Positions 10,101-28,629 of a DNA stretch of 64,000 nt are shown here, one piece after another. Origin of the DNA: Schmidtea polychroa (taxonomy: Eukaryota); NCBI GenBank assembly GCA_044892525.1, contig CM097885.1, positions 20,276,001 through 20,340,000 on the forward strand. Reading direction: 5' to 3'. A model generated the notes under the pieces. It had not been told where the DNA came from, did no database searches, and was given only the letters and a program-made list of their open reading frames with translations. Each line of letters begins with the position of its first letter. The first letter of the stretch is position 1. The position numbers and the translations under genes were made by a program.

Positions 10101-11703
10101 ACTTAAGAGAATCTAGTATATATATAACTTATATTAATAGTCCTAAGGTTTTTCTTATTGCTACTTCTTATTGTACTTGAAAGTCTATATTTTCCTTGGT
10201 TTTGATTTATGCTTTATGTTGAAATAATATTTATGCTTGCAAGTTATCCATGTGGCCTTGTTTTGGTTATGATGGAGAACAATTTTAATGTAGATCTATT
10301 TTGTGGATCACTATATCATATCTAGAGAAATTTATGCCTGTAAAATATCATTTCAACAACTTTTGAGTCGAATGAAAAGCACTTTTAGTGGAAAATTGTT
10401 TTTGTTATGAATCTATATATTGCAATTACATAACATTTGTCTTGACAATTTATCTTTTTATAGCTATTCAACTTAGTGTAGAATTATGTGAAGATGTTGC
10501 CCGAACTTATAAGTTATAGATATAATATTAGTAGTTTATAGATAAAGAGACTTTGTCAATATGTCTACGGGAATTTGCGCATACCAAGACCATTACGATA
10601 GAGAAATTTAGTTTGCATCAAAATAGGTTATTTTGTGGGCATCTATAGATATTAGTTCGCTTACCAGTGCGATTGAGATTATATTATCTTAGGTCCGACT
10701 CATCGCATAAACTTTAGGTTGCAGTATTCTTACAGGGAATAGTTCAGAATTTTTTAAGTCTTTAATTGCCTTAAAAATCTTTGCGCAGGGATCTCCCTGT
10801 TATTTTGAGTTAATTAGTTTCTTAGGTTCACCTCGACTTTATCGTTTGAGAGGGATTCGTTTAGAAATAACCAGCTACACTAACATGTTCTATTGTGTGA
10901 AATTTGAGTCAGGGGATATTCCCCGTTTATCAGTTCCTAATGTTGTGTGCAAAATAATATAATTTAAGTGTTAATTTAGATATGTAAGTTAACGAAAAGG
11001 TCAATTTAATTAAAATTTACCTACTTTCCCGACTACACTGAGTACGGTACGATAGGCCCTATTGTAATATGTATCCACAATTAGTTTCCCATAATTATTT
11101 CGTCCGCATAGTCCATGTGACTATGCCAACTACCAAGAAGGATTTATACGCCCTACTCATGGTTAAACACCAATAGTTCGTGGCGACCTCTGGTTAAGAT
11201 TATGTTTTTAGTGCATGTAGGGTCGAGGACCCGAAATCATTATGAACTGTGCATTCATAAATGATAAAGTGCATAGGTGCAGGGTTGGCTTGGATCTCGC
11301 TTCAAAATCATTGATAACCGACGATCTCATTCAAATCTATACCTCTATAATTAAATAAAAATAATGAAAACAAGGCTTCAATAATAATAATTTATAATTC
11401 ACAAATTTATAATTCAGAAAAATCAAAATCAAAAATTTGGCATAAGAGTAAGCATTAGCATTTTTTCCTTGAAAAGTGACGAAATGTGTTAGTTTATATA
11501 GCCTCTGTTTGACGTGTAAGTATACATGCGTGCATTGATGCAGTAAAACAAATTCAGATTATTTTAATTCTCAAACATTCGATTTTTAATTTTTATCGAT
11601 TTTGATGGCGATTTTTCAGTAAGGATTTTTGTTTTTATTTTTGGAATTTTGTTTTTGAATTATTTTTTATTAAATTTGCCTCCATGATGGATTTCAGCAT
11701 TTC

Positions 11704-13085
11704 AGTAGTATAATTGGAGCCCGCCCGGCCACATATACCCCCTCCCCCCCGGAAAAAATTTTTAGAACGATGCCACATATTTTTAGAACTATTACGTAAT
11801 CGATGCCTCATATTTTTAGAACTATTACATAATCGATGCCCCATATTTTTAGAACTATTACATAATTGATGCATCATATTTTTAGAACTAATACATAATC
11901 GATGCCTCGTATTTTTAGAACGATGCCACATATTATTCAAAATATTATTAGTGGCCTGGCGGGCTCATGGTTTTCGTTTGCCCAAAAGTTATCGTTCCCA
12001 TAATTCTACTTCATCGATCGATAGCTCATTTTAAAGCCCAGTGCAAGATCTATCTACTGATCTATAAATATTATTATCATCATTATTATTGGTATAGTTA
12101 TTAACAATTGATGACCACCATCTTTTCAAAGTTAAATTATTATTATTTTTCAAAATACTATTAATTGGCCCAGCGGGCTCACACTTTTTTCCATCCCAAT
12201 AATTAATGTTCCCGATAAACAGATTATATTGATCGATAGCTTATTTTAAAGCTCTGTGCAAGACCTTTCTAATGAGATATAGATTTCTATCATACGATGA
12301 CTCATCACATTTTTAGAACAAAGACAATGACTCATCATAATTTTAGAACGATGCCTAATATTTTTAGAACGATGCCACATATTTTTAGAACTACTACGTA
12401 ATCGATGCCTAATATTTTTAGAACGATGCCATATATTTTTAGAACTATTACATAATCGATGCCACATATTTTTAGAACGATGCCTAATATTTTTAGAACG
12501 ATGCCACATATTTTTAGAACTATTACGTAATCGATGCCTAATATTTTTAGAGCGATGCCTAATATTTTAGAATGATTACATCATATTTTTAGAATGATGC
12601 CTAATATTTTTAGAACGATGCCTCATATTTTTAGAATGATTACGTCATATTTTTAGAACGATGCCTCTTATTTTTAGAACTAATAATTTTGTTTTAATTA
12701 TCGATTACACAATAATTTAATTTTGTTTAAATCGTTGATTATATAATTTTGTTTAAATCATTGATTATATAAATTTTTTTAATTATCGAATACGTAATAA
12801 TATAATTTTGTTTAAATCGTTGATTATATATTATTTTTTTTTTAATTTTCAATATTTTCTTTTAAAATATTAACGCACCGTGGAAGTTGTTATTATTATA
12901 TACTCCGAGTTTATCCGACAAGATATTCTGTCCCCCTATGGGTACTGCTCACAAAGGTACTGCTCACCAGAGTACTACTCACACTCAACAAGTCACATAG
13001 GTACTGTTCACAAAGTTAGTACTAAAAATATTCAAGACAAAACTTTAACAAAGAAATTCTAAATATTATTCTTTAAATATACACT
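11704..13085 (+). repeat. Left terminal inverted repeat of element 1 with internal 21/33-bp tandem units (ATTTTTAGAACGATGCCACAT)
   Basis: Reverse complement of 25625-26892, matching from AGTAGT through CTTTAAATATACACT; differs by substitutions and repeat copy number. Confidence 0.96.
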
Positions 13086-13442
13086 AAAATTTATTAACAC
13101 ATTCACATTCATCATCTCCACAGTTCATAACATTTTCAACAACATGATCTATGCAATCCCTATATACGCACGGTTCAGTATCCGTAAATTCCTCCATAGG
13201 TTCATCAATTTCTTGAATGCTTTCCTCATCATCTTGAGTGTTTTCTTCATCTGTTTCATCAAATCCCGAATCTTCACTCTCTGCTACCCAGTCTATATTT
13301 AATGCGTTTGCAACAGATAATAAATCATCCATTTTCACACCAGATATTTCTGCTAATTTTTCCAATAAAAAGTTTATTATAAATTCTAAATATTAAATAA
13401 TTTGATAATTAACTAATCATATTAACCTTTTTCTGTAGTCAT
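13084..13442 (-). CDS. Small acidic, Cys-rich-tailed Polinton protein; exons 13442-13427 and 13385-13084
   Basis: ATG ACT ACA GAA AAA G|gt, 41-bp intron, ag|AA TTT joins in frame to the 93-aa TTG-started ORF; TATAAA on the minus strand ~35 bp upstream. Confidence 0.7.
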
Positions 13443-13545
13443 TATTAGTATTTTAAAACTATAGTATATATTTGTTTATAGAAAATATAGAATATAAGCG
13501 AAAACAAATATAACTAAATACATTTATTAAATACAACAACATTTA

Positions 13546-13965
13546 TTAAAATAACTGTGAAAGTCTAGCAGACATAATTTTCCAAATTGGAGAATACACA
13601 TCATTATTATCAACTTAATATCCTTGGATTGCAATTGTTATATACCAATTTTCGTTTTCTTTGAAACTGATTTCATCAAAGGAATCATAAAATTTTGCTG
13701 ATCGGTTGTTGAAAAATGCATTTTGATTGCATGATAGATTCGTATTCAACCTTTTGAAAATATCATCTATGGTTTTAATATCTAACATTGAAAGCGTGCC
13801 GGTTAAGAATTGAAATTGGGTAGGAATTAGCTTGATCGGTGACACCAATTTCATATTGATTTCTTCTTTTAAAAAATACATTTTATAGTTGTGGAACATT
13901 TGAACAGGTTGTACAAGTTCTGGAACTACTTTTGGTTTTTCTGTGCTTGAAATTTTCTTGGTCAT
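13546..13965 (-). pseudogene. Polinton accessory protein of unknown function with one internal in-frame stop
   Basis: 116-aa ATG-started ORF; the frame continues past TAA (13615-13617) as VDNNDVYSPIWKIMSARLSQLF*; TATA (~14000) and CCAAT (~14028) elements upstream. Confidence 0.6.
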
Positions 13966-14085
13966 TGTGAATTATGATTAAATTGAAATGGTGCAGGGTT
14001 TTTATACCTATGACTATTGTTTATCATCCAATCAGATTGCAGCATGTTTTTGTTTTAATTGAATTGATATTGCAATGATAAATAA

Positions 14086-14550
14086 TTAATTAAGTGATAA
14101 TAAAAAATCTAAAAATTCTTTTCCTTCAATTATTGATTTAATTTCAGATATGATATTATCAACTATACATTTGTAATCAATATTTTTTATTCCAAGAATT
14201 ACTATCTTACCACTAGCAAATATATTTACACACATAGGGTTATATTTTATATATCTCAAAGCTGGAAATAATTCTGGTTTATAAAAGCATGGTATTAATT
14301 TAGCTAATTTATTTAAATTACAAGAAAAAACTATATCAGAAGTTACGGTTATCGATTGTATTTCTAAATCATAAACATTATATTCACTAGCTTTGATTAT
14401 TTCATTACACCCCATAATTCTACATTTACCAGTTTTAAAATATATTATCGGATATTTATTACTTCTATTGATAAGTTGTTGTGGTTTCCCTATTGGAAAT
14501 ACCATTTTTGATACATCAGTTTTTGCCCTGTAATTTATATTTGAAAGCAT
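14086..14550 (-). CDS. TBP: TATA-box-binding-protein-like protein encoded inside the Polinton
   Basis: IQSITVTSDIVFSCNLNKLAK..FYKPELFPALRY..PMCVNIFASGKIVILGIK aligns with TBP repeat 2 (IQN.V.S.D..F.I.L..L, YEPELFPGL.Y, LIF.SGK.V.TGAK); SNINY and IIYFKTGKCRIMG resemble repeat 1. Intact 154-aa ATG ORF. Confidence 0.9.
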   Translation of the reverse strand: MLSNINYRAKTDVSKMVFPIGKPQQLINRSNKYPIIYFKTGKCRIMGCNEIIKASEYNVYDLEIQSITVTSDIVFSCNLNKLAKLIPCFYKPELFPALRYIKYNPMCVNIFASGKIVILGIKNIDYKCIVDNIISEIKSIIEGKEFLDFLLSLN

Positions 14551-14654
14551 TTTAATGAAATAATTATAAAAACTCTGATATATATAGGTATTTAAAAACA
14601 GAGTTCATTTAAATTAACAATATAAACAATAATTATATTGTTTAAATTTAAAAA

Positions 14655-15293
14655 ATGGAATTACGAAATGATGCAGTATACCAAATCGTTGGTCCAAGTG
14701 GTAGCGGGAAAACTTTATTTGTTTGTAAATTACTAAAATCAAATTTGTTTAAAACAAAATTCAACAATATTTATTGGCATAGGGGCGCCGACGAAGAACA
14801 TGGATTGACGCAATCAAGTTTCTGTCAGTTGAAAAACATGAAAATAGTAAATGGTTTTGAGAAAAACTGGTCAAGTCGTTTGAAGAAAGATGATGTCATC
14901 ATTATCGATGATTTGTATCAAGAAACCAATAAAGAAAAGGATTTTAATAATTTATTCACAAAAATCACCAGACATGTTGGTGTAACAGTTATTTTAATAA
15001 CACAAAATCTATTTCATCAAGGTGGTGCACATCGAACACGTAATTTAAATGTACAATATTTAGTTATTTTCAAGAATCCTAGAGATGCAACTGTCATTGA
15101 TTTTCTTGGACGACAAGCATACCCTAATAACCGTAATTTTCTTATCAATGCATTTCAAGATGCTACAAAAATACAGCATGGGTATATATTTCTCGATTTC
15201 ACACAACAATGTCCTGATGATATACGCGTAAAAACAGATATTTTCAATCCAAAAGGTGCCATGGTATATAAACAAAGTTCAAAACAAAGTTGA
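14655..15293 (+). CDS. A32/FtsK-like genome-packaging ATPase
   Basis: Walker A GPSGSGKT, Walker B IIIDD, LFTK..RH, ITQNLF, FKNPRD, typical of Polinton ATPases. Confidence 0.96.
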   Translation: MELRNDAVYQIVGPSGSGKTLFVCKLLKSNLFKTKFNNIYWHRGADEEHGLTQSSFCQLKNMKIVNGFEKNWSSRLKKDDVIIIDDLYQETNKEKDFNNLFTKITRHVGVTVILITQNLFHQGGAHRTRNLNVQYLVIFKNPRDATVIDFLGRQAYPNNRNFLINAFQDATKIQHGYIFLDFTQQCPDDIRVKTDIFNPKGAMVYKQSSKQS

Positions 15294-15306
15294 AAACATA
15301 TAAATC

Positions 15307-15801
15307 ATGTTTTCAAAAACAAGGATATCGGGTAAAAAACAACCAAAGGTTCCACCAACAACTAGTTATACTCCATCTAAAGAACTTATTACAGAAAATT
15401 TTCCTGCAATGAATCTTATTTCGAAAAATCCTAAACCTAAACCTAAAAGTAAAAATACTAAGAAAGTAAAAGTTGTTAAAAATCATCGGAGTTTCCCGTT
15501 TTTCAATACATTGTTAAAGGCACCAAGTATGAAAAGAAACAGTATTTTGCAATCATTTCCAAATTATGTTGTCGATGATTTACTCGATATTATACTTAAA
15601 GTAGTCAAAGGCAAGATTAAAATCAGTAAATCCAAAAAGCAGTTATTGAGTAAACATAGGAAACCTTTGCTATCATTAGTAAATAATAAAAATCGTCAAC
15701 AAATGAGAAAAATTATATATAAACAACAAGGGGGATTTATCGGTGCATTGATACCTTTAGCAATATCATTATTAGGTGGAATAATAGGAAGTCGAACATA
15801 A
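15307..15801 (+). CDS. Basic virion core-like protein with C-terminal QQGG|F amphipathic peptide
   Basis: Lys-rich 164-aa ORF ending QQGGFIGALIPLAISLLGGIIG; sits between ATPase and integrase as in other Polintons. Confidence 0.8.
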   Translation: MFSKTRISGKKQPKVPPTTSYTPSKELITENFPAMNLISKNPKPKPKSKNTKKVKVVKNHRSFPFFNTLLKAPSMKRNSILQSFPNYVVDDLLDIILKVVKGKIKISKSKKQLLSKHRKPLLSLVNNKNRQQMRKIIYKQQGGFIGALIPLAISLLGGIIGSRT

Positions 15802-15804
15802 ACA

Positions 15805-16032
15805 ATGGGTGCTAATCCTTCATTACCAGACATTAAATTTAATATTAAATCTTCTTGCTGTAATGGAGAAGATTTGGACGAACCCGGAAGACGAAGCCGG
15901 TTTTGGTGGAGTGGCAAAATTAAGGAAAAGAGTTCTGAATTCGAAAAAGGAAACCCAGAAGTGGTTATCAGACCAGCTTGCGTACAGTTTGAACAAACCA
16001 ATGCAGAAACGATTCCCAACAAGAGCATATAA
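15805..16032 (+). CDS. Candidate 75-aa overprinted ORF (MGxxxS myristoylation motif, SSCC)
   Basis: ATG 3 nt after the upstream stop in AACAATGG context; overlaps the integrase 5' end in another frame. Confidence 0.5.
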   Translation: MGANPSLPDIKFNIKSSCCNGEDLDEPGRRSRFWWSGKIKEKSSEFEKGNPEVVIRPACVQFEQTNAETIPNKSI

Positions 16033-16918
16033 AACATATGGAATAAATGATTTATGGCAAATGGATTTGATGGAGATGATACCCTATTCGAAAATTAACA
16101 ATGGGTATAAATATATTTTAACATGTATTGATGTATTCAGTCGGTTTGCCCGAGCAATACCCGTCAAGGCAAAATCTGCAGATGAAATGTCCAAAGCTGT
16201 TAATCATTTATTTAAAGATGGACATCCTAAAAACTTGCAAACTGATTTAGGTAATAATATTATTATTTTTATTATTATTATTATTATTTTAGGTAAAGAA
16301 TTCTACAACAGTAAAGTCAAGCAAATCCTCAATAAATTGAAAATAAACCATTACTCGGTACATTCTCAATACAAAGCTGCTCATGTTGAAAGATTTAACC
16401 GAACTTTGAGAGATAGATTAAAGAAATTATTTGTGCATCAAGGTAATAAAAAATGGGTATTGGTTTTACCAAAAATAATAACCAGTTATAATCATTCATC
16501 ACATCAAGGACTGAATGGATTAAGGCCGATTGATATCACGTCAAAAACAATCTATTCTACAAAACCTGTAAAAATTACAAAACCGAAATATAAAGTAGGT
16601 GACCATGTTAGAATTAGTAAAATTAGTTCATCACCATTTATTAAAAATTTCGATACGAATTGGAGTGATGAAGTCTTTGTAATTTCAAAAATAAATACTA
16701 AACAGAATCCTGTAATGTATGTCATCAAAGACAATGATAACAATATTGTACAAGGAAAGTTTTATGAGCAAGAATTACAAGTTATTCCTCCCCCAAAAGT
16801 ATTTAGAATTCAGAAGATATTGAAAACTAAAAAGGTCGGCAAGGATAAACAATACTATGTCAAATGGCATGGTTATCAAAACCCATCATGGATATCAGAA
16901 AAGGATCTAGTAAAGTGA
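15863..16918 (+). CDS. Retroviral-like (rve/c-INT) integrase with C-terminal chromodomain; 42-bp intron 16251-16292
   Basis: WQMDL, IDVFSRFA, TDLG^KEF, VERFNRTL DDE motifs; YYVKWHGY..SWI chromodomain; probable ATG at 15863 (MEKIW..GFGG). Confidence 0.97.
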   Translation: MEKIWTNPEDEAGFGGVAKLRKRVLNSKKETQKWLSDQLAYSLNKPMQKRFPTRAYKTYGINDLWQMDLMEMIPYSKINNGYKYILTCIDVFSRFARAIPVKAKSADEMSKAVNHLFKDGHPKNLQTDLGNNIIIFIIIIIILGKEFYNSKVKQILNKLKINHYSVHSQYKAAHVERFNRTLRDRLKKLFVHQGNKKWVLVLPKIITSYNHSSHQGLNGLRPIDITSKTIYSTKPVKITKPKYKVGDHVRISKISSSPFIKNFDTNWSDEVFVISKINTKQNPVMYVIKDNDNNIVQGKFYEQELQVIPPPKVFRIQKILKTKKVGKDKQYYVKWHGYQNPSWISEKDLVK

Positions 16919-17931
16919 ATTTTTATACTATTTTACCAAGCAATAGTTGCCCATTAATTCATCCAGATAATCAAGCCAGTAAATTCATGGTCAATCTCCA
17001 GAATCCGATTTCTTTAAATGGTGACTGGGAAGTTGCACTGCAAGATTTTACATTCGTGTACAATACATTCCCATTTTATAGTCAATGTAAGATTGATTTC
17101 AAAAGGAATGTTCTGAAAACATGTAGTGGTATCTTTATTATCAGTAATTATGATAAAACATATCATATTCCGAATCAAATATTAGATCCGCATTGCTCTA
17201 TGTTTTACAAGGATGGATTAAATATCAGTTGTGATTTTAAACCATTTACAATAACATTCGAATATATTGAAGATGCCAGACGAATGGGTTGCAACAAGTT
17301 GAAAAATGAAGTTATGGAAACAGAATATTTATTACGCTTTGATCTATTTGAAGCAAACAGTGTAATGAGAGAAGAAATCAAAATATCAGTGTCGTATAAT
17401 AATGAAGTTGAAGAATCATTCACCTTTGCTGAGGAATTATATATTGATAAACTTGATGTGTTACTTAAATATTTAAAGTACAATTGTTCACACATATTTA
17501 AAAGTTTGGACATTGTGAAAGATTTGTTATTTACATTTAGTTTGAATGATGACATTTGCGAAGTTACATTTGATAAAAATTTGACAAATACACTTGGATT
17601 AGAGAAGCATCAATATCGGGAAAAATCTGCTGGTATACGGAAACCAAGAATACTTGAACATCATCAACAAATGTTCATATATACTAATATTATTGAGTCT
17701 ATAATAGTTGGTGATTCCAGTGTTCCTCTATTGAAATCGGTGTGGATTGGAAAATACGAACATGATGAAGTTGTCAATATAAATATAGATAATCCCATGT
17801 ATTTACCAATTTCAAGCTCATGTATAAACAATATAGAAATAAATATTCGTGACGATAGTGGAAAACTTATAAACTTCCCAAAAGACTCAAAAACTCATTT
17901 GACACTACATTTTCGCAAAGTAGATGGCTAA
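16864..17931 (+). CDS. Minor capsid (penton-like, PX) protein
   Basis: FYTILPSNS..PDN..SKF..NL.NPI.L.GDWEVAL N-terminus and FIYTNII..IVGD..VPLL..PMYLP..IEINIRDD.G..LHFR C-terminus; start could be 16888. Confidence 0.88.
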   Translation: MAWLSKPIMDIRKGSSKVNFYTILPSNSCPLIHPDNQASKFMVNLQNPISLNGDWEVALQDFTFVYNTFPFYSQCKIDFKRNVLKTCSGIFIISNYDKTYHIPNQILDPHCSMFYKDGLNISCDFKPFTITFEYIEDARRMGCNKLKNEVMETEYLLRFDLFEANSVMREEIKISVSYNNEVEESFTFAEELYIDKLDVLLKYLKYNCSHIFKSLDIVKDLLFTFSLNDDICEVTFDKNLTNTLGLEKHQYREKSAGIRKPRILEHHQQMFIYTNIIESIIVGDSSVPLLKSVWIGKYEHDEVVNINIDNPMYLPISSSCINNIEINIRDDSGKLINFPKDSKTHLTLHFRKVDG

Positions 17932-18286
17932 TTCCGATATTATTAGTATGTATAGTGATAGCCAATCTGGCGGTGAATTACCATATTTTATTGGTAAACA
18001 GTACGGATCAGGTTGGTTAAAAACAATAGGGAGATTTGCACTTCCTATTCTTAAACGTATTGGTAGTTTTGGCATGAAAACTGCTAAAGATGTGATTATG
18101 AATGAGCAGAAAATATTACCATCCCTAAAAACAAATGCTTTAGCTGAGTTAGGGAAGGTTCTACCTGGAGTTGCAGGTATGTTTCAAAAAGATACGCCTC
18201 CAGCCCCAGCTCCAAAACGTAAAGGACATGGAATATCGCGTATAAACAAACGAATGAAGGGACATGGAACTATATTTGCAAAATGA
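17924..18286 (+). CDS. Conserved small Polinton core/membrane-active protein
   Basis: QSGG.LPYF.GKQYGSGW...GRFALPILK glycine motifs plus amphipathic helix and basic tail, directly before the major capsid gene. Confidence 0.8.
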   Translation: MANSDIISMYSDSQSGGELPYFIGKQYGSGWLKTIGRFALPILKRIGSFGMKTAKDVIMNEQKILPSLKTNALAELGKVLPGVAGMFQKDTPPAPAPKRKGHGISRINKRMKGHGTIFAK

Positions 18287-19461
18287 TTTGTGGTAAATTC
18301 GAATTATGTATATTTGATAGACCATCGCCACAGGCTGTAATAGAATTTGGGGCCTTTGAGGAAGTTTTTCCTATGAATTCAATTACTGATAGTAGAAATG
18401 ATATCGAGTTTTATATTAATGGTTCGCAAACTGAATATTTAGATTTGAACGATACTTTATTGACTGTTCAGATCAAGGTTGTAGATAAAGATAGAAAGGT
18501 TTTGGATGCCAATGCTGATGTATTACCAAACAATTTCCTGTTTCATACTCTGTTTAAAGATGCAGTGTTGGGATTTAATAATATTAAGATCGAGGGCGGA
18601 AATAATACATTCATTCACAAAATTACCTGTCTTACACCTATGGGTTATGCAGCAGCAGATGATGAAAGAAAAAAGTGGGTTAAAGGCTCAAAATCATTCA
18701 CTATGTGCTCATCATTACAACTTGATTTTATGGATCAACCGAAATATTTGCTACCAGGAGTTAATGTACACATTAGATTGAAAAGATCCGATTCTGCATT
18801 ATCTCTTACTAGTGCAATTGGTGCACCAATATGCCAATTAGTTGATGCAAAATTATTGGTGAGAAGAGTGCGAGTAGACCCGTCAGTATTAGCTGGTCAT
18901 CAATTGGGTCTTAATTCAAAACATGCAATTTATCCATTAAAAACAAAGGAAATTGTATAATTTGCTATTGCTAAAGGTGCTTCATTCTATAAAGAACAAA
19001 TATTTGGTGACAGAAGAATGCCTAATTTTATTCTGGTAACATTTCAAAGTGAAACGCAATATAATGGATCTTATACTGCTTCGAGCTCAATTTTCAAAAA
19101 TTTTGGTGTTACTTCATTGACTTTGTCGAAAAATACTGATTATAGAGAAACATATACTCAAGATTTCGAAAGCGATAATTACTGTGCGACATATATGCAG
19201 AGTATTGTTAGAAATCTGGGTTACTTAGATAAAAACTTGAATTGTGGAATTAATCTAGAAGAATTTAAAAGCAAATATCCATTTTTCACATTTGTTTTAG
19301 CCCCTGATTTTGATTTAAATCAGAGTCAACTACCACAAAACGGGAATTTACGACTGGATATAAAGTTTGCAAAGGCCATTACTGAACCAGTACATGTTAT
19401 AATATATGGGGTATTTGAAAATGAAATTCAAATTACTGCAAATCGAACCGTGCTAGTATAA
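18283..19461 (+). pseudogene. Major capsid protein (double jelly-roll, PY) interrupted by in-frame TAA at 18958-18960
   Basis: IEFYING..EYLDLNDT.L, LHTLF-like, QPKYLLPGV..IRLKR, G.LRLDIKF, IIYG.FEN.I.I...R.V motifs; the 225-aa and 147-aa ORFs share one frame, joined by FAIAKGASFYKEQIFGDRR. Confidence 0.92.
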
Positions 19462-19542
19462 ATGTATACAGAAATATAAAAAGTTGTCATGGAGTAAGTT
19501 TTTTTTTGATACTGTTTAATTTATTAAAGTAGTTCTGTTCAG

Positions 19543-19875
19543 GTCAATAGAATTGGAAAACAGATATTGGGAAATGAATTTGTAGGAGTTTTTCCTCTTG
19601 ATAAAATTCCGTATTTGAGCAATAATCAAGCCATAATCGTCAATACTCAATCTTCTCATCTTGGTGGAGAACATTGGATTGCTATATATATGAAACCTAG
19701 TAATATATTCGTGTTCGATCCTATGGGTTTCTATTACCCTGCTTTGTTGGTATCAAAACTACAAACAATGGGGAAACCTATTGTATATAATAAAACAATG
19801 TTTCAAAATCCATTGACACAAACATGCGGTCAACATTGTTTAGCTTGGTTGTTGTATAAAAAATTTGATGTTTAA
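19543..19875 (+). CDS. Adenain-like (Ulp1/C5) maturation cysteine protease, main exon; upstream intron 19494-19542, first exon appears frameshifted
   Basis: FVGVFP.D, IVNT, GEHWIA, FDPMG, FQ...TQTCGQHC give the His-Asp-Cys catalytic set. Confidence 0.93.
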   Translation, partial: VNRIGKQILGNEFVGVFPLDKIPYLSNNQAIIVNTQSSHLGGEHWIAIYMKPSNIFVFDPMGFYYPALLVSKLQTMGKPIVYNKTMFQNPLTQTCGQHCLAWLLYKKFDV

Positions 19876-19897
19876 TAAATGTATCCTTTCCTTTGTT

Positions 19898-19923
19898 GTT
19901 ATTATTATTTTAATTATTATTAT

Positions 19924-19954
<31 letters not shown>

Positions 19955-20058
19955 ATTATTATTATTATTATTAATATTATTATTATTATTATTATTAATA
20001 TTATTATTATTATTAATATTATTATTATTATTAATATTATTATTATTATTATTATTAA

Positions 20059-20125
<67 letters not shown>

Positions 20126-20165
20126 ATTATTATTATTATTATTAATATTATTAATATTATTATTT
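19898..20165. repeat. (ATT)n microsatellite inside element 1
   Basis: Long ATT run with periodic AAT variants. Confidence 0.97.
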
Positions 20166-20277
20166 TTAATTAAATTTATTTTGAAAAATATTATTATCCA
20201 AATAAAGACAACACAATCATTGTGCATGCACAAAGTCATGACTAACAAAGATAGTCAGTCCCATGAAGTAGATACCA

Positions 20278-20365
20278 TTTGATTGGCTGATAGAGGAAAA
20301 ATATTCAGGAATGTGTCTAAATTCTGATTGGTTGAGACATGGAAATATTCCTGATCTATATAAAC
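20278..20365 (+). promoter_or_regulatory. Putative Pol II promoter of the pPolB gene (two inverted CCAAT boxes plus TATA)
   Basis: GATTGG at 20281 and 20326, TATATAAA at 20357-20364, ATG at 20431. Confidence 0.6.
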
Positions 20366-20430
20366 ATTGACAAATCTAAAATTTGTCACAATTATTCTTA
20401 AATTTACAAATAACGAAATTTTAAATTAAA

Positions 20431-21266
20431 ATGGACGCAGATTTACACAATATTTTGAATGCCATGTTGATGGGTGAAAATGGTAAATTATTTAGTTATT
20501 ATTATTATTATTTATTATTATTTTTGAGAATTTATGGTTTCAAGTGACCGAAGATAATTCAATTTTGAATGTTGATAGGATTTTCGGTAAATTTAAATAT
20601 TTTAATTTTTATGAAATTATTATTTTATTTAGAACCTATTATAATTAGCGACGACGATGATGTCGTTTTTATTGGACAAAATGATGCCCCTGATAAAGAT
20701 GCCTTATTTGTTGGGCAAAACAATGTTTTCAATAAACAAAGTAAATTTATTTTATTTAGTATATTATTTTTTAAAAATCATTTTAGTGTTTAATGTTGAC
20801 ATGGATGCAGATACCACAATTAATAATGATGAGGAAAACAATATGGAAAATGCCCTCACTTTTATTGAGGAGGTAGCTGATGAGGAATCTGATTCCGACC
20901 AGGAATCACAATGTAAGCATTTATTTATTTTTATATTTCTTTAACAAAATTTTTAAAATTTTCTTAATCGCTTTTTTAAACAGTTGCATAAATCTTATTC
21001 GTAAAATTATTATGTTTTTTTTGAATTATTATTATTGTAATTATGACGAAATTATGAAGAAAATACTATGATGGAAATTATAAAGAAATTACTATGATGA
21101 AAATTATGAAAATGAAGAAAATACTATGATGAAACTATTATAACGAAAATGAAGAAAATTATGAAATTATTATTTTGAAATTATGCAAATGTTTAAAAAA
21201 AGTGATTAAGAAACTATAGTTTTAAAATATTCCTTGTAGTTTGCAATGAGGAACTACATTAGTTAA

Positions 21267-21333
<67 letters not shown>

Positions 21334-21746
21334 TTAATGATAATAATAATAATGATAATAATATATCTTGTAGTCTGCAGTGAGCATGCAGCTACATATC
21401 TCTTTTATTATGATTGCTCCAATAAATGTAGTCTGCAGTCAGCATGCAGCTGCATCAAACTATTTATTTATTAGGTAATAATTACCCTTTATTAAATGTA
21501 GTCTGCAGTGAGCATGCAGCTGCATCAAACTATTTATTTATTAGGTAATAATTACCCTTTATTAAATGTAGTCTGCAGTGAGCATGCAGCTGCATCAAAC
21601 TATTTATTTATTAGGTAATAATTACCCTTTATTAAATGTAGTCTGCATCGAGCATGCAGCTACATCAAACTATTTATTTATTAGGTAATAATTACCCTTT
21701 ATTAAATGTAGTCTGCAGTCAGCATGCAGCTGCATCAATAATAATG

Positions 21747-21800
<54 letters not shown>

Positions 21801-24800
21801 TCCCACATTTATAGTTTACAAGACTTTATTAATATTTTACAATTATTAATATTTATTTCATTTTCATAATGTATTTAAATGAAACATATATCAATAATTG
21901 TAAAATCCTTATAAGAACTAAATGATAATTGCGTAAAAGAAATATAAATGTTATATAAATACAATTTCATGACTAATATTAATTGATAAATATAATTAAC
22001 AGGCGAATTTTATCCACATTACTGCCAGGCTTCAACTGGTCACTCAAAATTATGTCACAAAGTGATGAAAAAATATTATGGTCGTAAATTTTATGGTATC
22101 AAGTACTATATATGCCCAATATGCGAGACTTCCCATAGCATTAAATATTTAGAGTTTTACAGTATACATAGATCCCATTTAAATCAGTTCTCTTTAAATA
22201 AAAAGGATTTATTTAACAAACTGCGAAATACCTCAAAACCTGTAATTAAAACTACTGTAAATAATACAAAACCTGTAAATAATATTACAAAACCTGTAAA
22301 TAATATTACAAAACATGTAATTAAAACTAATGTAAATAATACAAAACCTGTAAATAATATTACAAAACCTATAATTAATAATGTTATTAATGTAAATAAT
22401 AATTTAAAAAGACCTGCTGTTAGTATTGGGTCTGATGCTCCCTCTAAAATAAATAAATTAGATCAAATAACTGTCAATGATGTGGTTAATAATATTCAAG
22501 TAGGCGGTTCAGTCGATATTGACGATGAACCTGAAATCGAAATTGATTTTAAGGGGGTTCGAAAGAATCTAAGATTTAATGTAGAGAAGGATAACATCAT
22601 TCAAATAACCATAACCGATAAAATCGTTAATAAGTTAAATCATGAAATAAACAGAATGGGGTCGGTGAAAATACAATTCTCCGTATTGATTCAATTTGAA
22701 AAAGATGGTGAAATTAAAGATAATTTCTTCTCGAATAGGGCAGAGGCTTTTTCAGATAGTTTTCTAAGTGAGGGGGTTCACAAATTAAATAATAAAATAG
22801 AAAAATTCACATATTTGGGTAGTGGATGGCGGGTTGTTAAAATCAAAGAAATAGATTTTATATTAACAAAATTTACACATATGAATAGGCTAGCTGGACA
22901 TAGTTATATCCCCACCCCATCATCTTTAAAATCTAAAAATGCAATAGTAAACGTTAAAAACACTGATGATATGTGCTTTATATATAGTATTTTAGCACTT
23001 TTAAAACGTAATGTAGTACATAGTCATAGGTACCGTGTTAGTTCCTATGAAAATTATCTTGACGAGTTAAATTTTGACCCCATTTCCGACTGTCCAATGA
23101 AATTATGTGATATTCCTAAATTCGAGATGAAAAATAAGGATTTAAATTTAGCAATAAATGTTTTAACTTATAGAACGACATCAGCTAAGCTTTTTGAAAA
23201 TATAGTTGACGATAATTATATTCCACATCATCCCAAATTGGATATAATTCACCGATCTAAGGTTATAGGTGGTGAACCCTTATACTTACTTTTATTGGAA
23301 GATGGTGATAATTTTCATTACACCGCAGTTTTTAACTTACAAAAATTAATGAATTGTCACTCTAGCAGTGAATGCGGCGTTAGACTTCAAGTAAACTGGT
23401 GTCCCCATTGTCTTAACGGATTTAGACATAAAAATGCATTTGATATTCATGTCGCCTTATGCATTAAAAACCAGATAGGAACAATTCTATACACGTTACC
23501 CAAATTTAATTTTTCAAAATTATGCGAAAACCATCACCCCGCCATTCGTGTTATATGCAGACTTTGAATCAATTTTACCGGGGGATATAATACACCATCA
23601 AAAGCATTTGCCAATAACAGCAGGTTTATTATTAATAAATAATTATAATAACTCTAAATTTTATTATGAGTTTGTTGGGGATGATTGCATCTTATCTTTC
23701 TTGCGTAAGGTGGAGGAAATTGCTATGACAAAAAGCCCATGCAAACCTTGTCTTTCGCTGAAGAGCGGGCCTCTCGTGATTCCAGAACCTGCTACCTTTG
23801 TAAAAGATTTATTAGAAATAGAGTTAGGGATCATTGTCACTTTTCAGGTAAGTATCTTGGTGCTGCCTGTAGGAAATGTAATGTTTCTCGACGAATTCTG
23901 AAACAGTTACCTGTGGTTTTTCATAATTTGAGGGGGTATGATCTTCATCATATTTTGAAGTATGGTTTGAAGAATTTTCCTTCTTGGGAATTAAATATTA
24001 TTCCGACCACTACCGAGAAATTCATCTCCCTCATCGTTTATATTAAAAAATTGTCTGTTCGTTTTATTGGCAGCATGCAGTTTGTTAATTCATCTTTAGC
24101 AAAAGCGGTTAAGACTCTTTCCGATCTGCCTTTAACTTCTTCGGTTTTCGATGGCGCAATTGTTCGAGCCAAAGGTATCTTTCCTTATGACTTTGCAACA
24201 TCTCTTGAGGTTCTGGAATCGACTCTTGAATTGCCTCCTATCTGGGATTCTGTGTCTAATGATGAATATGCATTAGCCCAAGTAATTTGGACTCAGCAAA
24301 ACTGCAATAACATGTTAGATTACATGTTAACTTACCTTAAATTAGATGTTTAATTTCTATGAAGGAGGGATACGGGGTGGGTTAACATTTGTTAACAAAC
24401 ATTATGTTGCAAGTTCTGAAGACACAGAACTCTTGTATATTGATATTAAAAACCTTAAAAAACGGATGAATTTGAGGCTATGCAATTCAGCTGAAAAGAT
24501 GATTGTATATGCTTCAAAGCCGACTTTCAAGAAATCTATCAAAATTGATGATGACTTGATTGCTGCACATCTCAATAAGGATTCTATATGTTTAGACAGG
24601 CCTAGTTACATTGGCCAAACGGTGCTAGACCTGTCTAAACTGAGGATGTACCAGTTACAGTATATACTATATAGAATTGGCTAAATATAGAAATGAATTT
24701 AAATGTGAAATAAATATCGTTGCCGGCGATACTGACTCCTTTTTTCTTGAGGTTAGGCACTGTAAGCTTGACATTCTTTTGCCGGCAATGGTTCGTGACA

Positions 24801-25372
24801 ATCTTTTAGACACTTCAAACTATGACCTTGCACATCCCTTATACTCTAGAAACCTTGATTCTGTGATAGGTAAATTTAAAGATGAAAGTAAAGGTCTAGG
24901 GTATAAGGAATGGGTTTTCTTAAGACCCAAGTGCTATAGTTTGTTAGGGGCTAAAAATCATTTAAAAGCAAAAGGAGTCAGGTTAATAGGTACAGAAATT
25001 AGGCACGATTCATATTTAGAATGCTACAATAACAACGTAGTATTTTCTGTGCCACAAAGTAGGATAGGGACGCGGAACCATCAATTGTACACATTTAAAA
25101 ACAATAAAATCGCGTTGTCAAACAACGACGACAAGCGGTTTTGGGTGGGGAAAAATCCCAGTCTCGCATTTGGTCATTATTTAGCACTAGATGACATAAA
25201 TGATGATCAAATATTTGAAGAAGTTGGGCCACTATTCGGAGGATTAAGTCCAGATTTTGTTTCTGTTGATGAGGAAGTGGGTCCACTTTTCAATGGTTTA
25301 AGTCCAGATTTCGATTCTGGGGATGATCCTAATGATGAAATAGATATAGATGATATTTTATTGTCAGACTAA
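20431..25372 (+). pseudogene. Protein-primed family B DNA polymerase (pPolB) with spliced acidic leader; frameshifted and internally deleted
   Basis: Leader exons 20431-20482, 20545-20586, 20633-20740, 20787-20912 splice in phase to 22003. Motifs GSGW, SYIPTP, N.DD.CF, YADFES (ExoI), RDHCH..GKY.GAAC..CN, FHNL.GYD (ExoII), KGIFPY, YLKLDV, IRGG, YID (motif A), GDTDS (motif C), GKFKDE, KAKGV are spread over five ORFs; motif B is absent. Confidence 0.93.
21423..21737. repeat. 70-bp tandem repeat (~4.5 copies) with a hairpin per unit, in pPolB intron 4
   Basis: ATTACCCTTT recurs at 21481, 21551, 21621, 21691; unit contains TGTAGTCTGCAGTGAGCATGCAGCTGCA. Confidence 0.95.
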
Positions 25373-25624
25373 ACTGTGATAAATGTTAATATATCTTTTT
25401 ATTTTGAAAACGTTTCTTCTACATTGTTGTATTATCTAAAATCTTTTATTGAAAACTCGTTATAGTTTTCACAATTCTTACAATTGTTAAACACTTGTAT
25501 AAATATATTTATTAATATTGATAAAGTTTTTATAAATCATGTTTAACTATTGAAAGAATTTGGTAGAATTTTTTTTTTTTTGAAATGTATGTTGTAGTGA
25601 GCACACCACTACATATATGAGTTG

Positions 25625-26892
25625 AGTGTATATTTAAAGTATAATATTTAGAATTTCTTTGTTAAAGTTTTGTCTTGAATAGTTTTACCAGTAACTTTGT
25701 GAACAATACCCATGTGACTTGTTGAGTGTGAGCAGTACCCTGGTGAGCAGTACCCATAGGGGACAGAATATCTTGTCGGATAAACTCGGAGTATATAATA
25801 ATAACAACTTCCACGGTGCGTTAATATTTTAAAAGAAAATATTGAAAATTAAAAAAAAATAATATATAATCAACGATTTAAACAAAATTATATTATTACG
25901 TATTCGATAATTAAAACAAAAAATTATATAATCAATTATTTAAACAAAATTATATAATCAACGATTTAAACAAAATTAAATTATTGTGTAATCGATAATT
26001 AAAACAAAATTATTAGTTCTAAAAATAAGAGGCATCGTTCTAAAAATATGACGTAATCATTCTAAAAATATGAGGCATCGTTCTAAAAATATTAGGCATC
26101 GTTCTAAAAGTATGACGTAATCATTCTAAAAATATTAGGTATCGTTCTAAAAATATGTGCCATCGATTATGTAATAGTTCTAAAAATATATGGCATTGTT
26201 CTAAAAATATGAGGCATCGATTACGTAGTAGTTCTAAAAATATGTGGCATCGTTCTAAAAATATTAGGCATCGTTCTAAAAATATGATGAGTCATTGTCT
26301 TTGTTCTAAAAATGTGATGAGTCATCGTATGATAGAAATCTATATCTCATTTGAAAGGTCTTGCACAGAGCTTTAAAATAAGCTATCGATCAATATAATC
26401 TGTTGGCGGGAACATTAATTATTGGGATGGAAAAAAAGTGTGAGCCCGCTGGGCCAATTAATAATATTTTGAAAAATAATAATAATTTAACTTTGAAAAG
26501 ATGGTGGTCATCAATTGTTAATAACTATACCAATAATAATGATGATAATAATATTTATAGATCAGTAGATAGATCTTGCACTGGGCTTTAAAATGAGTTA
26601 TCGATCGATGAAGTAGAGTGATGGGAACGATAACTTTTTGGCAAACGAAAACCATGAGCCCGCCAGGCCACTAATAATATTTTGAATAATATGTGGCATC
26701 GTTCTAAAAATATGAGGCATCGATTATGTAATAGTTCTAAAAATATGAGGCATCGATTATATAATAGTTCTAAAAATATGGGGCATCGATTATGTAATAG
26801 TTCTAAAAATATGTGGCATCGTTCTAAAATTTTTTTTTCCGAGGGGGAGGGGGGGGGGTATATATGGCCGGGCGGGCTCCAATCATACTACT
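25625..26892 (-). repeat. Right terminal inverted repeat of element 1
   Basis: Reverse complement of 11704-13085. Confidence 0.96.
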
Positions 26893-28629
26893 CATTTCCA
26901 GAATATTTCATGCTAAATTTAATCTATTTCTTATTTTTAAATTGTTTTTTATGATTTCTTTTCTAAAATCTTTATTTTTTAAACTAAAATATTTATTTTT
27001 TATAAATTTTATTGGGTCGTTTGGCGGTCATGATGGATTTCGCCATTTTTATGAATTGTTCTGGATTTTTATTCAAAATATCGATATAATTTTCTTTACG
27101 TAAGATTTTATGAAGATTTTCTTTAATTTTCTTTTTTATTAATTTTTACTAATCGCCTTTATTTGAATTTGTTTTTTTGTTGTTTTATGTCTTTCGGTTA
27201 TATTTGAGTAAGTTTTCGTGTAATACTTCTTGCTCGTGTTTTATTTTATTTTTAATTCAGATGTTTTATTTTTGGGTATATTATCTCTTTATTATCATTG
27301 TTTACTTGGTTTTTTTATATATTTTTATTTAAGTAAACTTAATGCTGTGTATGCGTGTTGTGTACTGACACATTTCGTCCCATTCCTAACTTTGGGTTCA
27401 GAAATCAGTTCTAGCCCAACAAATGTAATGATTTCTTTGATAATCCTTTTCTTTGCATGTCATCTCTAGAGTAAGCATTATACCAAGATATCCTAAAGTT
27501 CTGCATAGAGTTAAGGTAGACACAGTAATGGCTTTACAGAAAGTCAGCCCAATACTGAAAGTTGAAAGGGACGTGGTTTTATTCCAATCAAAGGAACACA
27601 GTAAAGAAGCTTATATTGTAGTTTAAAATACTTTCAATGCAAGCAAATTCGAAAGTCTAAAGCATAAAAGAACATTATACAAATGAGGAAAAATGTCGAT
27701 GGCTATTCCGTAATGGCAATTACGTAATTTCCTCAAATATTTATCTATTTTTTCTATTTTCCGTTGTTTATTGTAATTTATTTACATAAAATTTTCAGAA
27801 AGGCAAATTTATTTTTATTTGTTAGAATGTGCACTTTACAATGCATTGTTTTATTTGCTAAGTTGTTGCATTTTGTTCATTTTCATCTCTATATTTTTTG
27901 GTGATACTGAGTATGAAATCAAGTTCAAACGTCTTGAACATTCATATGAATAAAGATAAATTTGATTAAATAAAAGTAAAGTCAGCATTGTTTTTGGCCT
28001 AACACTTTGCATTAATTGATGTTGAAGAATTATTAATTAAGATTTGGTGTTGCACATGGATACATTAGTAGGTAGATAGTGGCCCCCCGCAGCAATGACA
28101 CCCCCCCCCTGCGGCAACTTTTTTTTGCGGCGACTTTTTGATTACGCAATTTTTTCAGACTATAGTGAGGGGGTCTCGATGGTCTTGGGATTTTCAATAC
28201 AAAAATTTTTTTCAATACAAAAACGATGGTCCTGGGATTTTCAATACAAAAAATTTTTTTCAATACAAAAATCCAATACAAAAAAAAAATTAAATTACAG
28301 TAAATTATGAGCTAAGATTTTAAAATTAAGTAATCATTGGTAAAAAATTTAAATAAGTAAATTAAAGTAATAATTTTTAAATAAGTAATGTAATAATAAA
28401 ATTAAAGTAAGATTTTAAAATTTATTAACAAATAATAGAAGGCGTTTGAGAATTGAAATTTTTTAATGAAAATTTTTATGAAATAATTTTTTAAGTAATT
28501 TTTAATAGAAATTTTAATGAAATATTTTTTAAAATAATTTTTAATGGAAATTTTTATGAAATAATTTTTTAAGTTAATTTTTAATGGAAATTTTTATGAA
28601 ATATTTTTCAAAGACAAATTTTAATAATA

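Follow-up and report, generated by a model that had tools for sequence, protein, structure and literature searches.

The window we analyzed, a 64-kb stretch of the Schmidtea polychroa genome, contains a Polinton/Maverick copy of 15,189 bp at 11704–26892, delimited by its ends and flanks. The copy has AG...CT termini and sits between identical 6-bp target-site duplications, CATTTC, the left one at 11698–11703 and the right one at 26893–26898. Its left terminal inverted repeat (11704–13088) contains arrays of 21/33-bp repeats and has its partner at about 25622–26892; the inverted arms, ~11738–13088 and 25622–26851, are roughly 1.4 kb long with a complementarity of 83–100%. Long terminal inverted repeats, a 6-bp target duplication and AG...CT ends are those of a Polinton/Maverick, and so are the hallmark genes found between them: a protein-primed DNA polymerase B (pPolB), an rve integrase, an A32 ATPase and an adenain-type protease.

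Three genes are read from the minus strand. The first, orf93 (13084–13365), encodes an acidic protein with a Cys-rich C terminus. Next to it, orf116 (13615–13965) is a truncated version of a 139-aa protein whose OB fold resembles that of gp2.5; the full-length protein is probably a single-stranded DNA-binding protein, the family matching viral SSBs with VIA Z scores of 6.8 to 7.2. The third is the subject of this article, a TBP-like gene (TBPL) at 14086–14550 that encodes 154 amino acids comprising a complete C-terminal TBP repeat and an all-strand N-terminal lobe. As the first-pass annotation had it, this is an intact, intronless ORF inside the terminal inverted repeats, reading through without a stop and standing head-to-head with the ATPase gene across a divergent spacer of 104 bp (14551–14654) that contains TATATATA at 14579–14586.

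On the plus strand follow the A32-like packaging ATPase (14655–15293; Pox_A32, E = 1.2e-7), the conserved orf164 (15307–15801), the rve integrase with its chromodomain-like C-terminal end (15809–16918; rve, E = 3.9e-8, plus a weak chromo match), the conserved orf355 (16864–17931) and orf120 (17924–18286), a putative major capsid gene (18283–19461), an adenain-like (C5) protease ORF (19567–19875; Peptidase_C5, E = 5.4e-7) that runs into a simple-repeat array at 19899–20168, and pPolB (22062–25372; DNA_pol_B_2, E = 5.5e-8). The block of ATPase, integrase, capsid and protease genes proposed earlier is secured by Pfam for three of its members; the putative capsid ORF had no match in Pfam or among PDB sequences, a profile search included; in relatives a conserved ORF of 406 aa lies where a capsid gene is expected. 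In the window copy the capsid ORF is interrupted by an in-frame stop at 18958–18960. We considered an intron there and rejected it: the two halves share one frame, nine relatives are uninterrupted and the window has the in-frame stop. Outside TBPL, then, this copy is degraded, with its capsid stop, shortened orf116 and a pPolB spread over at least four overlapping frames.

TBPL is a true TBP homologue with the saddle fold. Pfam's TBP family (PF00352) matches it over residues 62 to 125 only (E = 2.6e-13; 50 bits, cut-off 22.9), and 35 of the 36 matches at E <= 10 in a sequence search of the PDB are TBPs. The AlphaFold (AF2) model has a pLDDT of 94.6. Run against the PDB with Foldseek, it returned 44 matches at E <= 0.001, all of them TBPs, with TM scores of 0.58 to 0.72 on the query; since these alignments span 155 to 184 columns, both lobes are covered. 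The C-terminal lobe is canonical, with both DNA-kinking phenylalanines, the Phe-Pro step and the E-P-E-L-F stirrup. The N-terminal lobe has kept its strands (2–10, 25–28, 35–38 and 42–48 in the model) and lost both helices, H1 and H2; there is no long helix, just a four-residue one at 54–57. What we see is therefore one Pfam stretch and a strands-only lobe 1, rather than two complete tandem repeats of five strands and two helices each.

The residue-level claims made at first sight also held. Phe95 and Phe111 of repeat 2 and Phe38 of repeat 1 are invariant in a 24-member family alignment, so three of the four kinking phenylalanines are present and the fourth place is taken by Gln24/Gln25; the repeat-1 mapping is inferred, as it is based on the strands of the model. 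The family opens with M-[LI]-x-N-I-N-Y and has no N-terminal extension. In the stirrup, which we take to be the TFIIB contact after yeast E186/E188/L189, E93 is invariant and E91 and P92 nearly so. The window TBPL has a lysine at the first stirrup glutamate (K91) and departs at three residues from the form common to 19 of 20 sampled copies from its own genome, a sample biased because it was ranked by similarity.

Relatives of TBPL are about 150 aa long and fall into 88 representative clusters at E <= 1e-10. Among 24 sequences, 24 columns are invariant, nine of them in lobe 1: lobe 1 has nine invariant and six near-invariant positions of 59, lobe 2 fifteen and five of 66. Identity is 40 to 58% across lineages with saturated dS. 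We compared the family with 28 two-repeat TBPs, on whose cellular members NCBIfam gave archaeal model scores only, and with five frames from TBP paralogues of the host, whose genome encodes a canonical TBP with introns alongside five or more other frames of TBP type. In the resulting tree the family members group together as a single clade (SH-aLRT 100), its stem 1.57 changes per site long. The clade extends beyond the window copy and is separate from host and cellular TBPs alike. For this reason TBPL is not a recent host retrocopy, as its divergence had suggested from the start. The gene belongs to one Polinton lineage, where it is conserved and monophyletic, and not to the host.

Selection tells a similar story. 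With pairs sorted by dS into four bins of 25, 5, 3 and 292, the Nei-Gojobori method gives median dN/dS values of 0.31, 0.33, 0.20 and 0.295, respectively. This is not near 1 and is above the 0.05 to 0.23 of neighboring genes; dS is 2 or more in 793 of 1128 pairs, which is to say saturated between most lineages, and close pairs are underpowered (L020 and L092 differ by four synonymous and nine nonsynonymous changes). We set aside dN/dS from the 20 best copies of the host's own genome, where ranking by protein score biases toward synonymous change. The gene also keeps its company: the ATPase adjoins TBPL in all ten own-genome loci examined, and a core Polinton gene lies beside it in 25 of 55 metagenome loci (12 of 14 among loci of at least 3.5 kb). 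Copies are many, a first look at the own genome returning 4111 candidates, that is, thousands of candidate copies. Just one of 25 close relatives carries the name TBP in its source, none of the members read from ten clusters has an NCBI or UniRef source, the Protein Atlas returned only generic TBP clusters and a scan of IMG/VR with the TBPL alignment found no relative.

The second strand of the argument comes from the other genes of the element. Of 74 non-TBPL element genes from 19 loci, 62 have TATAAAC(A/G) ahead of them in the sense orientation, compared with 1 of 18 TBPL genes (Fisher p = 5.6e-10; shuffle mean 7.75, maximum 17). These counts are not independent events, because the loci share ancestry, though dS is saturated between most lineages. 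An unbiased count of 7-mers puts ATAAAC[AG] at the top, with 57 of 74 windows in sense and two in antisense. The box precedes every ATPase (13/13), capsid gene (9/9), orf120 (9/9) and orf355 (6/6) and nearly every integrase (10/11); cover is weaker for orf164 (5/8), the protease (6/9) and orf116 (2/7). TATAAA is followed by C, A, G or T in 46, 6, 4 and 15 windows of the 74 other genes, and in 0, 2, 7 and 9 of the 18 TBPL windows. Three distant, ATPase-bearing viral contigs without TBPL served as a negative control and had the motif upstream of 0 of 11, 0 of 14 and 2 of 23 ORFs.

In the 64-kb window, six of eight TATAAACAA matches fall inside the element, all in gene sense, and TATAAAC has a density of 0.66/kb in the element versus 0.18/kb in the flanks. 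On the plus strand, TATAAACAA boxes lie at 14621–14629, 34 nt before the ATPase ATG, at 15267–15275 before orf164, at 15718–15726 before the integrase, at 17823–17831 about 100 nt before orf120 and at 18241–18249, 42 nt before the putative capsid gene; a ATAAACAA box before orf355 occupies 16845–16852. On the minus strand, a ATAAACAA box (14017–14024) stands 59 nt before orf116 and a TATAAACAA box (13472–13480) upstream of orf93. Some boxes are within coding sequence. The orf355 box is one, lying inside the integrase coding sequence, and as it overlaps conserved chromodomain-like codons, protein constraint contributes there. Across loci, 12 of 13 have the box 32 to 37 nt upstream of the ATPase start codon; with a start some 30 nt past the box, ATPase leaders would be of a few nucleotides only. 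A general role as a branch point, 3' splice or trans-splice signal can be discarded, there being no AG in 16 of 50 motif-to-ATG intervals, including 8 of 15 for the ATPase.

TBPL itself has a different promoter: canonical TATAAA(G/T) with an Inr-like TCA, instead of TATAAAC(A/G). In the window the candidate TATA box is the TATATATA of the divergent spacer, set in a (TA)n tract that is longer in some copies than in others. Of 37 non-redundant TBPL upstream regions, 19 contain TCAYWAHT (shuffle mean 2.8, maximum 8), and in six of the eight regions with both motifs the spacing from TATA to TCA is 31 to 32 nt. TATAWAW before TBPL, at 22 of 37, is no more frequent than the shuffle maximum.

What might a transposon want with a TBP? 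Reading these sequence patterns together, and with confidence about evenly poised, we propose that a cut-down, element-borne TBP reads a private TATAAAC promoter code by way of host Pol II. Host TBP/TFIID would fire the TBPL promoter first. TBPL would then bind the TATAAAC boxes of the element, its intact C-lobe on the TATA half and its remodelled N-lobe on the AAC half, which ordinary TBP would disfavor, and would bring in host TFIIB and RNA polymerase II through the conserved stirrup; with no RNA polymerase subunits in the 15-kb element, it would have to use the host's. The lobe-1 helices of cellular TBP are docking sites for host regulators. Because these helices are absent from TBPL, the element would gain a promoter code of its own that largely bypasses such regulators. 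The geometry has precedents in PMC1636458, where the C-proximal repeat of TBP lies on the 5' half of the box and the N-proximal repeat on the 3' half. There, Pro191 imposes a T at position 1, and a variant, TBPm3, disfavors C in the downstream part of the box. A fuller version, which we hold more tentatively and a little short of even confidence, would be a two-step switch: a host-type TATA plus Inr promoter would make a mini-TBP whose N-lobe has shifted from TATAAA(A/G/T) to TATAAAC, and this protein, blind to host TBP regulators, would turn on all the other genes, the cassette being swapped between element lineages as a module. The first-pass annotation had imagined a basal factor of altered specificity for the element's own promoters. 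An element-wide TATAAAC that is rare before TBPL now lends that idea indirect support.

How does TBPL compare with what is known? With cellular TBP and its paralogues (TBP, TRF/TBPL1-type) it has in common the fold, the Pfam repeat, the C-lobe Phe pair, the Phe-Pro step and the E-P-E-L-F stirrup. It differs in being about 150 aa long, lacking H1/H2, one kinking Phe and the N-terminal tail, and in forming a separate, long-stemmed clade that is transposon-borne and present in many copies. Nucleocytoviricota, too, encode proteins of the TBP fold, including the asfarvirus B263R type; of 19 BFVD matches to TBPL at E <= 0.001, every named one is a Nucleocytoviricota TBP-like protein (best E = 3.7e-7). 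Those proteins have 189 to 547 aa and two full lobes, in contrast to a mini form in a 15-kb element, and the giant viruses that have them mostly bring their own RNA polymerase.

The closest working logic to the role proposed for TBPL is, by analogy, that of the herpesvirus late-gene TBP mimics (BcRF1/ORF24/UL87). The herpesvirus mimic reads a variant TATA, TATT, on viral late genes, to which it recruits host Pol II. A box shared across genes is common to both, TATAAAC standing before most element genes and almost never before TBPL, whose binding to it is a prediction. The mimics are far larger, work in a six-protein complex and use TATT, whereas the element box is TATAAAC. Fold matches between TBPL and the mimics are weak (U58, E = 7e-3, rank 30; BcRF1, E = 1.4e-2, rank 37) and demonstrate no common origin.

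Polintons/Mavericks are presumed to have given rise to adenoviruses, virophages and giant viruses, and, to our knowledge, next to nothing has been established about how their genes come to be transcribed in the nucleus. If an element does pair its own TBP with its own TATA variant, this would be the first regulatory logic for Polintons/Mavericks, a natural case in which losing and remodelling one lobe has re-specified a TBP half-site, and possibly an evolutionary stepping stone to the transcription systems that larger DNA viruses have of their own. What is new here, the TATAAAC(A/G) shared by nearly all element genes but TBPL, suggests that the element brings its own promoter-reading factor. 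The gene itself was taken at first to be undescribed in animal Mavericks, a claim that needs tempering. In the literature we searched, subscription journals lying outside its scope, we found neither a TBP gene nor a TATAAAC-type promoter motif in Polintons/Mavericks save for one legend: that of Fig. 5 in Starrett et al. 2021, which already labels a 'TBP' gene in MELD viruses with adintovirus-like PolB. That gene, too, is noted as TBP-like, and its carrier is a mid-size virus with linear dsDNA or a Polinton-like genome. It appears as a legend label, in a section on non-animal datasets, with no analysis, family, motif or structure; the text of one supplement contains neither 'TBP' nor 'TATA'.

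The strongest competing explanation, possible but in our judgment unlikely, has host TBP or a forkhead protein reading the TATAAAC boxes, with TBPL as a modulator or decoy that sequesters TFIIB, TFIIA or TATA sites already occupied, or escapes host repressors, and so tilts transcription toward the element. With the canonical TATAAA core inside the box, host TBP may be able to bind there, and ATAAACA fits the forkhead consensus RYAAAYA. The retained stirrup and missing lobe-1 helices would suit a decoy, and with thousands of candidate copies dosage effects are conceivable. Such a protein would leave unexplained the avoidance of C at position 7 before TBPL (0/18 against 46/74) and lobe-1 strand residues as conserved as those of lobe 2; nor is the fixed distance from box to ATPase ATG expected of a forkhead site. 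A decoy for host TFIIB, TFIIA or TAFs had been raised in the first-pass annotation, and of that proposal the TBP fold was upheld while the decoy role gained no support.

TBP-like folds do other DNA tasks in some proteins, and TBPL could in principle be an architectural protein rather than a transcription factor, bending DNA for replication, packaging or integration, for example to help the protein-primed polymerase at terminal repeats or origins. We regard this as improbable. TBPL does lie in the arm adjoining the terminal repeats, and homologues of orf116, the probable single-stranded DNA-binding protein, adjoin it in 18 of 55 metagenome loci. The terminal repeats, however, hold repeats of another kind, CGATGCCNCATATTTTTAGAA, without the box; the homology is to true TBPs, TFIIB-contact motif included; and in a second arrangement (L045, L047, L053, L056, L058 and L060) TBPL sits between protease and PolB with no SSB-like gene nearby. 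That TBPL is a functionless passenger, the decaying fragment of a captured host TBP, might be read from its truncated lobe 1 and the degraded state of the rest of this copy, but is most improbable given that all 150 scored own-genome matches are open (in a sample ranked by score), that identity persists over saturated dS at a dN/dS of about 0.3, that the clade is apart from host TBPs and that synteny is conserved. Intact frames and a high-confidence fold likewise contradict gene-prediction noise.

Returning to a TBP that reads its own element's promoters, the proposal makes a simple prediction: TBPL should favor TATAAACAA over TATAAAAG, and do so beyond host TBP. A 154-aa protein and a 9-bp box make a directly testable pair. 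The canonical host TFIIB gene has an intron that splits the first cyclin repeat, and the best TFIIB-family match in the own genome presumably resembles BRF1. Planarian Polintons rise upon smedwi-2 knock-down (PMC8532177).

TBPL, the 154-aa TBP-like ORF on the minus strand at 14086-14550, is a conserved, element-owned mini-TBP. The first-pass annotation had placed an intact gene of this kind inside a Polinton and expected it to have the saddle fold, and both ideas were borne out. Pfam's TBP model matches residues 62-125 (E 2.6e-13, 50 bits against a cut-off of 22.9), with no Pfam match of any kind in residues 1-60, and TBPs make up 35 of the 36 matches in a PDB sequence search at E<=10, the best being archaeal (4.8e-13). 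The AlphaFold model, from an input alignment of 24 relatives, has a pLDDT of 94.6 and a pTM of 0.82. Its Foldseek matches at E<=0.001, 44 in number, are TBPs without exception, and their alignments run over 155-184 columns and so take in both lobes of the saddle. The strand-helix-strands-helix layout is complete in lobe 2. In lobe 1 there are strands at 2-10, 25-28, 35-38 and 42-48; helix H1 is absent and H2 is a four-residue remnant. Three of the four DNA-kinking Phe positions had been read as kept and the region of the fourth as shortened. In the family alignment the three (F95, F111 and F38) are indeed invariant, and, with lobe 1 mapped by the strands of the model, Gln24/25 stands in place of the fourth. 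Full or near invariance also marks E91-P92-E93 and P96, the Pro of the Phe-Pro step. Such positions are equally dense in the two lobes (15/59 in lobe 1, 20/66 in lobe 2), so lobe 1 has been remodelled and maintained rather than left to decay; the long C-terminal helix has none. In a similarity-ranked and hence biased sample, 19 of 20 copies share one form of the protein, from which the window's departs at residues 49, 74 and 91; residue 91 is where the stirrup motif has its first Glu.

TBPL represents a gene family that belongs to one Polinton lineage. A word-indexed search returned 25 relatives (101-235 aa, 38-94% identity, Pfam TBP in all) from ENA, Logan, JGI or MGnify assemblies, a single one of which bore the TBP name at its source. 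An exhaustive search gave 789 representatives at E<=0.001, of which 88 reached E<=1e-10; the best of the latter align in one stretch over residues about 1-140. As for the proposed company of Polinton genes, tblastn of the window's own proteins against 55 metagenome loci encoding a TBPL relative found an adjoining core gene in 25, an orf116-type gene alone in 9 and nothing in 21. Those 21 loci are all <=3.1 kb; among loci >=3.5 kb, 12 of 14 carry core Polinton genes. One gene order runs orf116-TBPL-ATPase-orf164-INT-orf355-orf120-capsid-PRO with PolB on the opposite strand (e.g. L024, L032, L055), and in another TBPL follows the protease (L045, L047, L053, L056, L058, L060, L061, L072). TBPL and ATPase are co-directional in most metagenome loci and head-to-head in the window and in 10/10 own-genome loci examined.

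The best 150 of 4111 first-look candidates from a protein search of the window's own genome are all open, the window itself plus 149 at 98% identity, a sample biased because it comprises the best-scoring matches. A Pfam-model search of that genome brought out further subfamilies with open frames of 163-219 aa. In six subfamily copies (among loci L088-L095) identity to the window (14086-19461) is 82-97% over the block from ATPase to capsid gene and only 53-56% for TBPL; lineages have thus swapped the TBPL arm, at the divergent spacer. The L088-L095 elements are mosaic, the left arm being, like TBPL, 53-56% identical to the window's and the breakpoint being that spacer. TATATATA at 14579-14586, picked out in the first-pass annotation, is a (TA)n microsatellite, which in the L086-L095 spacers varies among copies from 4 to >40 units.

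The Polinton/Maverick itself looks complete: 15,189 bp at 11704-26892, with ends AG...CT, flanked on both sides by the identical six bases CATTTC. Its arms are inverted repeats of ~1.4 kb each with 83-100% complementarity. They contain 21/33-bp tandem repeats of the unit CGATGCCNCATATTTTTAGAA (11768-12680, mirrored at 25900-26850), which yield spurious ORFs and may be protein-binding sites. The minus strand carries orf93, orf116 and TBPL. A tightly packed plus-strand block starts 104 bp from TBPL and holds an A32-type ATPase, orf164, an integrase of the rve type that ends in a chromodomain-like tail, orf355, orf120, a putative capsid gene (so labelled in the first-pass annotation) and a C5 (adenain-type) protease; 3' of the protease come simple repeats and then the protein-primed PolB. 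The capsid candidate drew no match from Pfam or from PDB sequences. Pfam E-values of the core proteins are about 1e-7 to 5e-8. Between protease and PolB lies a 70-bp tandem repeat (21423-21738, 4.5 copies, 96% matches) with (AAT)n runs on either side.

This copy is degraded. An in-frame stop at 18958-18960 interrupts the putative capsid gene, which in nine relatives stays open across this point without a change of frame; orf116 stops 23 codons before the sister copy's end; the protease ORF continues into the simple-repeat array (19899-20168); and PolB (22062-25372) is spread over at least four overlapping frames. The orf116 of the window (13615-13965, minus strand) is a shortened version of a conserved 139-aa protein (L092:3573-3989, minus strand). 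Of 48,161 chains compared with an AF2 model of the orf116-type protein (pLDDT 88.7), the four that match best are viral ssDNA-binding proteins or their kin: ASFV CP312R (Z 7.2), DUF2815 (Z 7.1), phage Enc34 SSB (Z 6.9) and T7 gp2.5 (Z 6.8). On this modelled fold, orf116 is probably the element's ssDNA-binding protein.

What is new and testable is the pairing of a mini-TBP with an element-wide TATAAAC box. In 130-nt upstream regions aligned from 26 loci, TATAAACA(A/T) lies ~35 nt upstream of the ATPase ATG, and it is present in lineages with ATPase identity of just 35-72%. In the window's element ATAAACAA has eight plus-strand matches, each in or before a gene of that strand, and two minus-strand matches, each before a minus-strand gene, against an expectation of ~1.5 per strand. 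The element, 24% of the window, holds 6 of the window's 8 matches to TATAAACAA. TATAAAC density is 0.66/kb in the element (9 of 10 matches in gene sense) against 0.18/kb in the host flanks, where its 9 matches are fewer than those of TATAAAA (69) and TATAAAT (82).

We surveyed 19 loci, picked as distinct lineages, for sense matches within ~150 nt of gene starts. ATAAAC[AG] precedes 62/74 non-TBPL genes but only 1/18 TBPL genes (Fisher p 5.6e-10): ATPase 13/13, capsid 9/9, orf120 9/9, orf355 6/6, INT 10/11, PRO 6/9, orf164 5/8, orf116 2/7 and orf93 2/2. Antisense matches occur in 3/74 windows, and shuffled windows average 7.75 and reach at most 17. Nor was the motif imposed, since it supplies the top 7-mer and top 8-mer in an unbiased count (ATAAACA 57, ATAAACAA 44, TATAAACA 42). 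Box position 7 is the decisive contrast: after TATAAA, C follows in 46/74 windows of other genes but 0/18 of TBPL, A in 6/74 and 2/18, G in 4/74 and 7/18, and T in 15/74 and 9/18. A small control came from three distant viral contigs in which a related ATPase occurs but no TBPL in the part examined: the motif precedes 0/11, 0/14 and 2/23 of their ORFs. A general splice signal was rejected because AG is absent from 16/50 box-to-ATG intervals. The orf355 box (16845-16852) falls within the integrase's chromodomain-like codons, with homologous sites in L024, L032, L055 and L058; the first codon varies (D/H/N/Y) with a constant AT ending, and Lys is invariably AAA, a usage that suggests a DNA motif selected on top of the protein.

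Of the 37 non-redundant regions upstream of TBPL itself, 19 have TCAYWAHT at a distance of 6-15 nt from the ATG, against a mean of 2.8 and a maximum of 8 in shuffles. TATAWAW, in 22/37, shows no excess over the best shuffle. Where both occur, the T1-to-A spacing is 31-32 nt in 6/8 regions, the classical TATA-Inr distance.

According to PMC1636458, the C-proximal repeat of TBP contacts the 5' half of its box and the N-proximal repeat the 3' half, Pro191 beside a kink Phe enforces T at position 1, and the variant TBPm3 discriminates against C in the downstream half. TBPL keeps precisely these C-lobe features (Phe-Pro, both Phe) and has a rebuilt N-lobe; in the boxes of the element, TATA is retained and it is the 3' half that differs. 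From this correspondence we infer a stepwise promoter model, binding steps included, to which we give about an even chance. Host TBP would fire TBPL's canonical promoter, TBPL would then bind the TATAAAC boxes, and it would recruit TFIIB and Pol II through its conserved E-P-E-L-F stirrup, which we take to be the TFIIB contact after yeast E186/E188/L189. Several host TBP regulators dock on the lobe-1 helices of TBP; TBPL, lacking these helices, may therefore escape such control. A rival reading, unlikely though still to be reckoned with, has host factors reading the box and TBPL acting as modulator or decoy: the box contains TATAAA and also fits the forkhead consensus, RYAAAYA. An architectural role for TBPL in replication or packaging is improbable.

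Virus-encoded TBP-like factors are already a known kind. Giant viruses encode TBP-fold proteins, as this Polinton does, and every named match among the 19 from a BFVD search with TBPL (E<=0.001) belongs to the giant viruses. Nearest to the stepwise model in working logic is the herpesvirus late-gene TBP mimic, which reads TATT; herpesvirus mimics are weak fold matches to TBPL. The novelty claimed for a Polinton TBP gene needs qualifying: a full-text literature search found neither such a gene nor a shared promoter box described for Polintons/Mavericks, but the Fig. 5 legend of Starrett et al. 2021 labels one gene 'TBP', a word absent from the one supplement text of that paper that was searched. 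A term search of a 2023 review-type analysis of Polintons/Mavericks (PMC10328495) gave neither TBP nor TATA. Planarian Polintons are recorded as piRNA-controlled and de-repressible (PMC8532177).

That TBPL is a functionless passenger is scarcely credible; judged by its codon substitutions, the gene is under selection. Its dN/dS is well below 1, with Nei-Gojobori medians of 0.20-0.33 over 48 coding sequences: 0.31 (25 pairs, dS 0.02-0.2), 0.33 (5 pairs), 0.20 (3 pairs) and 0.295 (292 pairs, dS 1-2), the other 793 of 1128 pairs being saturated in dS and outside these medians. Neighbouring element genes, window against L092, give 0.05-0.23. Nor is TBPL a host retrocopy; the first-pass annotation had likewise argued against a recent one. 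A maximum-likelihood tree from a quick search (79 rows: 46 TBPL, 28 unnamed two-repeat TBPs and 5 host frames; its midpoint root serves drawing only) separates the TBPL rows with an SH-aLRT of 100 and a branch length of 1.57, and the host frames group with some of the two-repeat TBPs, apart from TBPL.

Besides a canonical TBP with introns, the host carries at least five other TBP-type frames. Loci L076-L082 of the genome comprise the canonical gene, a pair of close paralogue exons separated by ~40 kb, a 215-aa TRF-like frame in a single exon, and two divergent frames with two repeats each. At least 13 matches to a 301-aa TFIIB-like ORF without introns lie in local clusters (C1:23.85-24.19 Mb and C3:38.2-39.1 Mb), with no Polinton genes seen in the 10 kb examined. 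The ORF has a Zn-ribbon (E 1.5e-10) and a TFIIB repeat (E 4.9e-9; L104:4482-5387, L105:4572-5477), and the clusters resemble an expanded family of basal-factor paralogues within this one genome.
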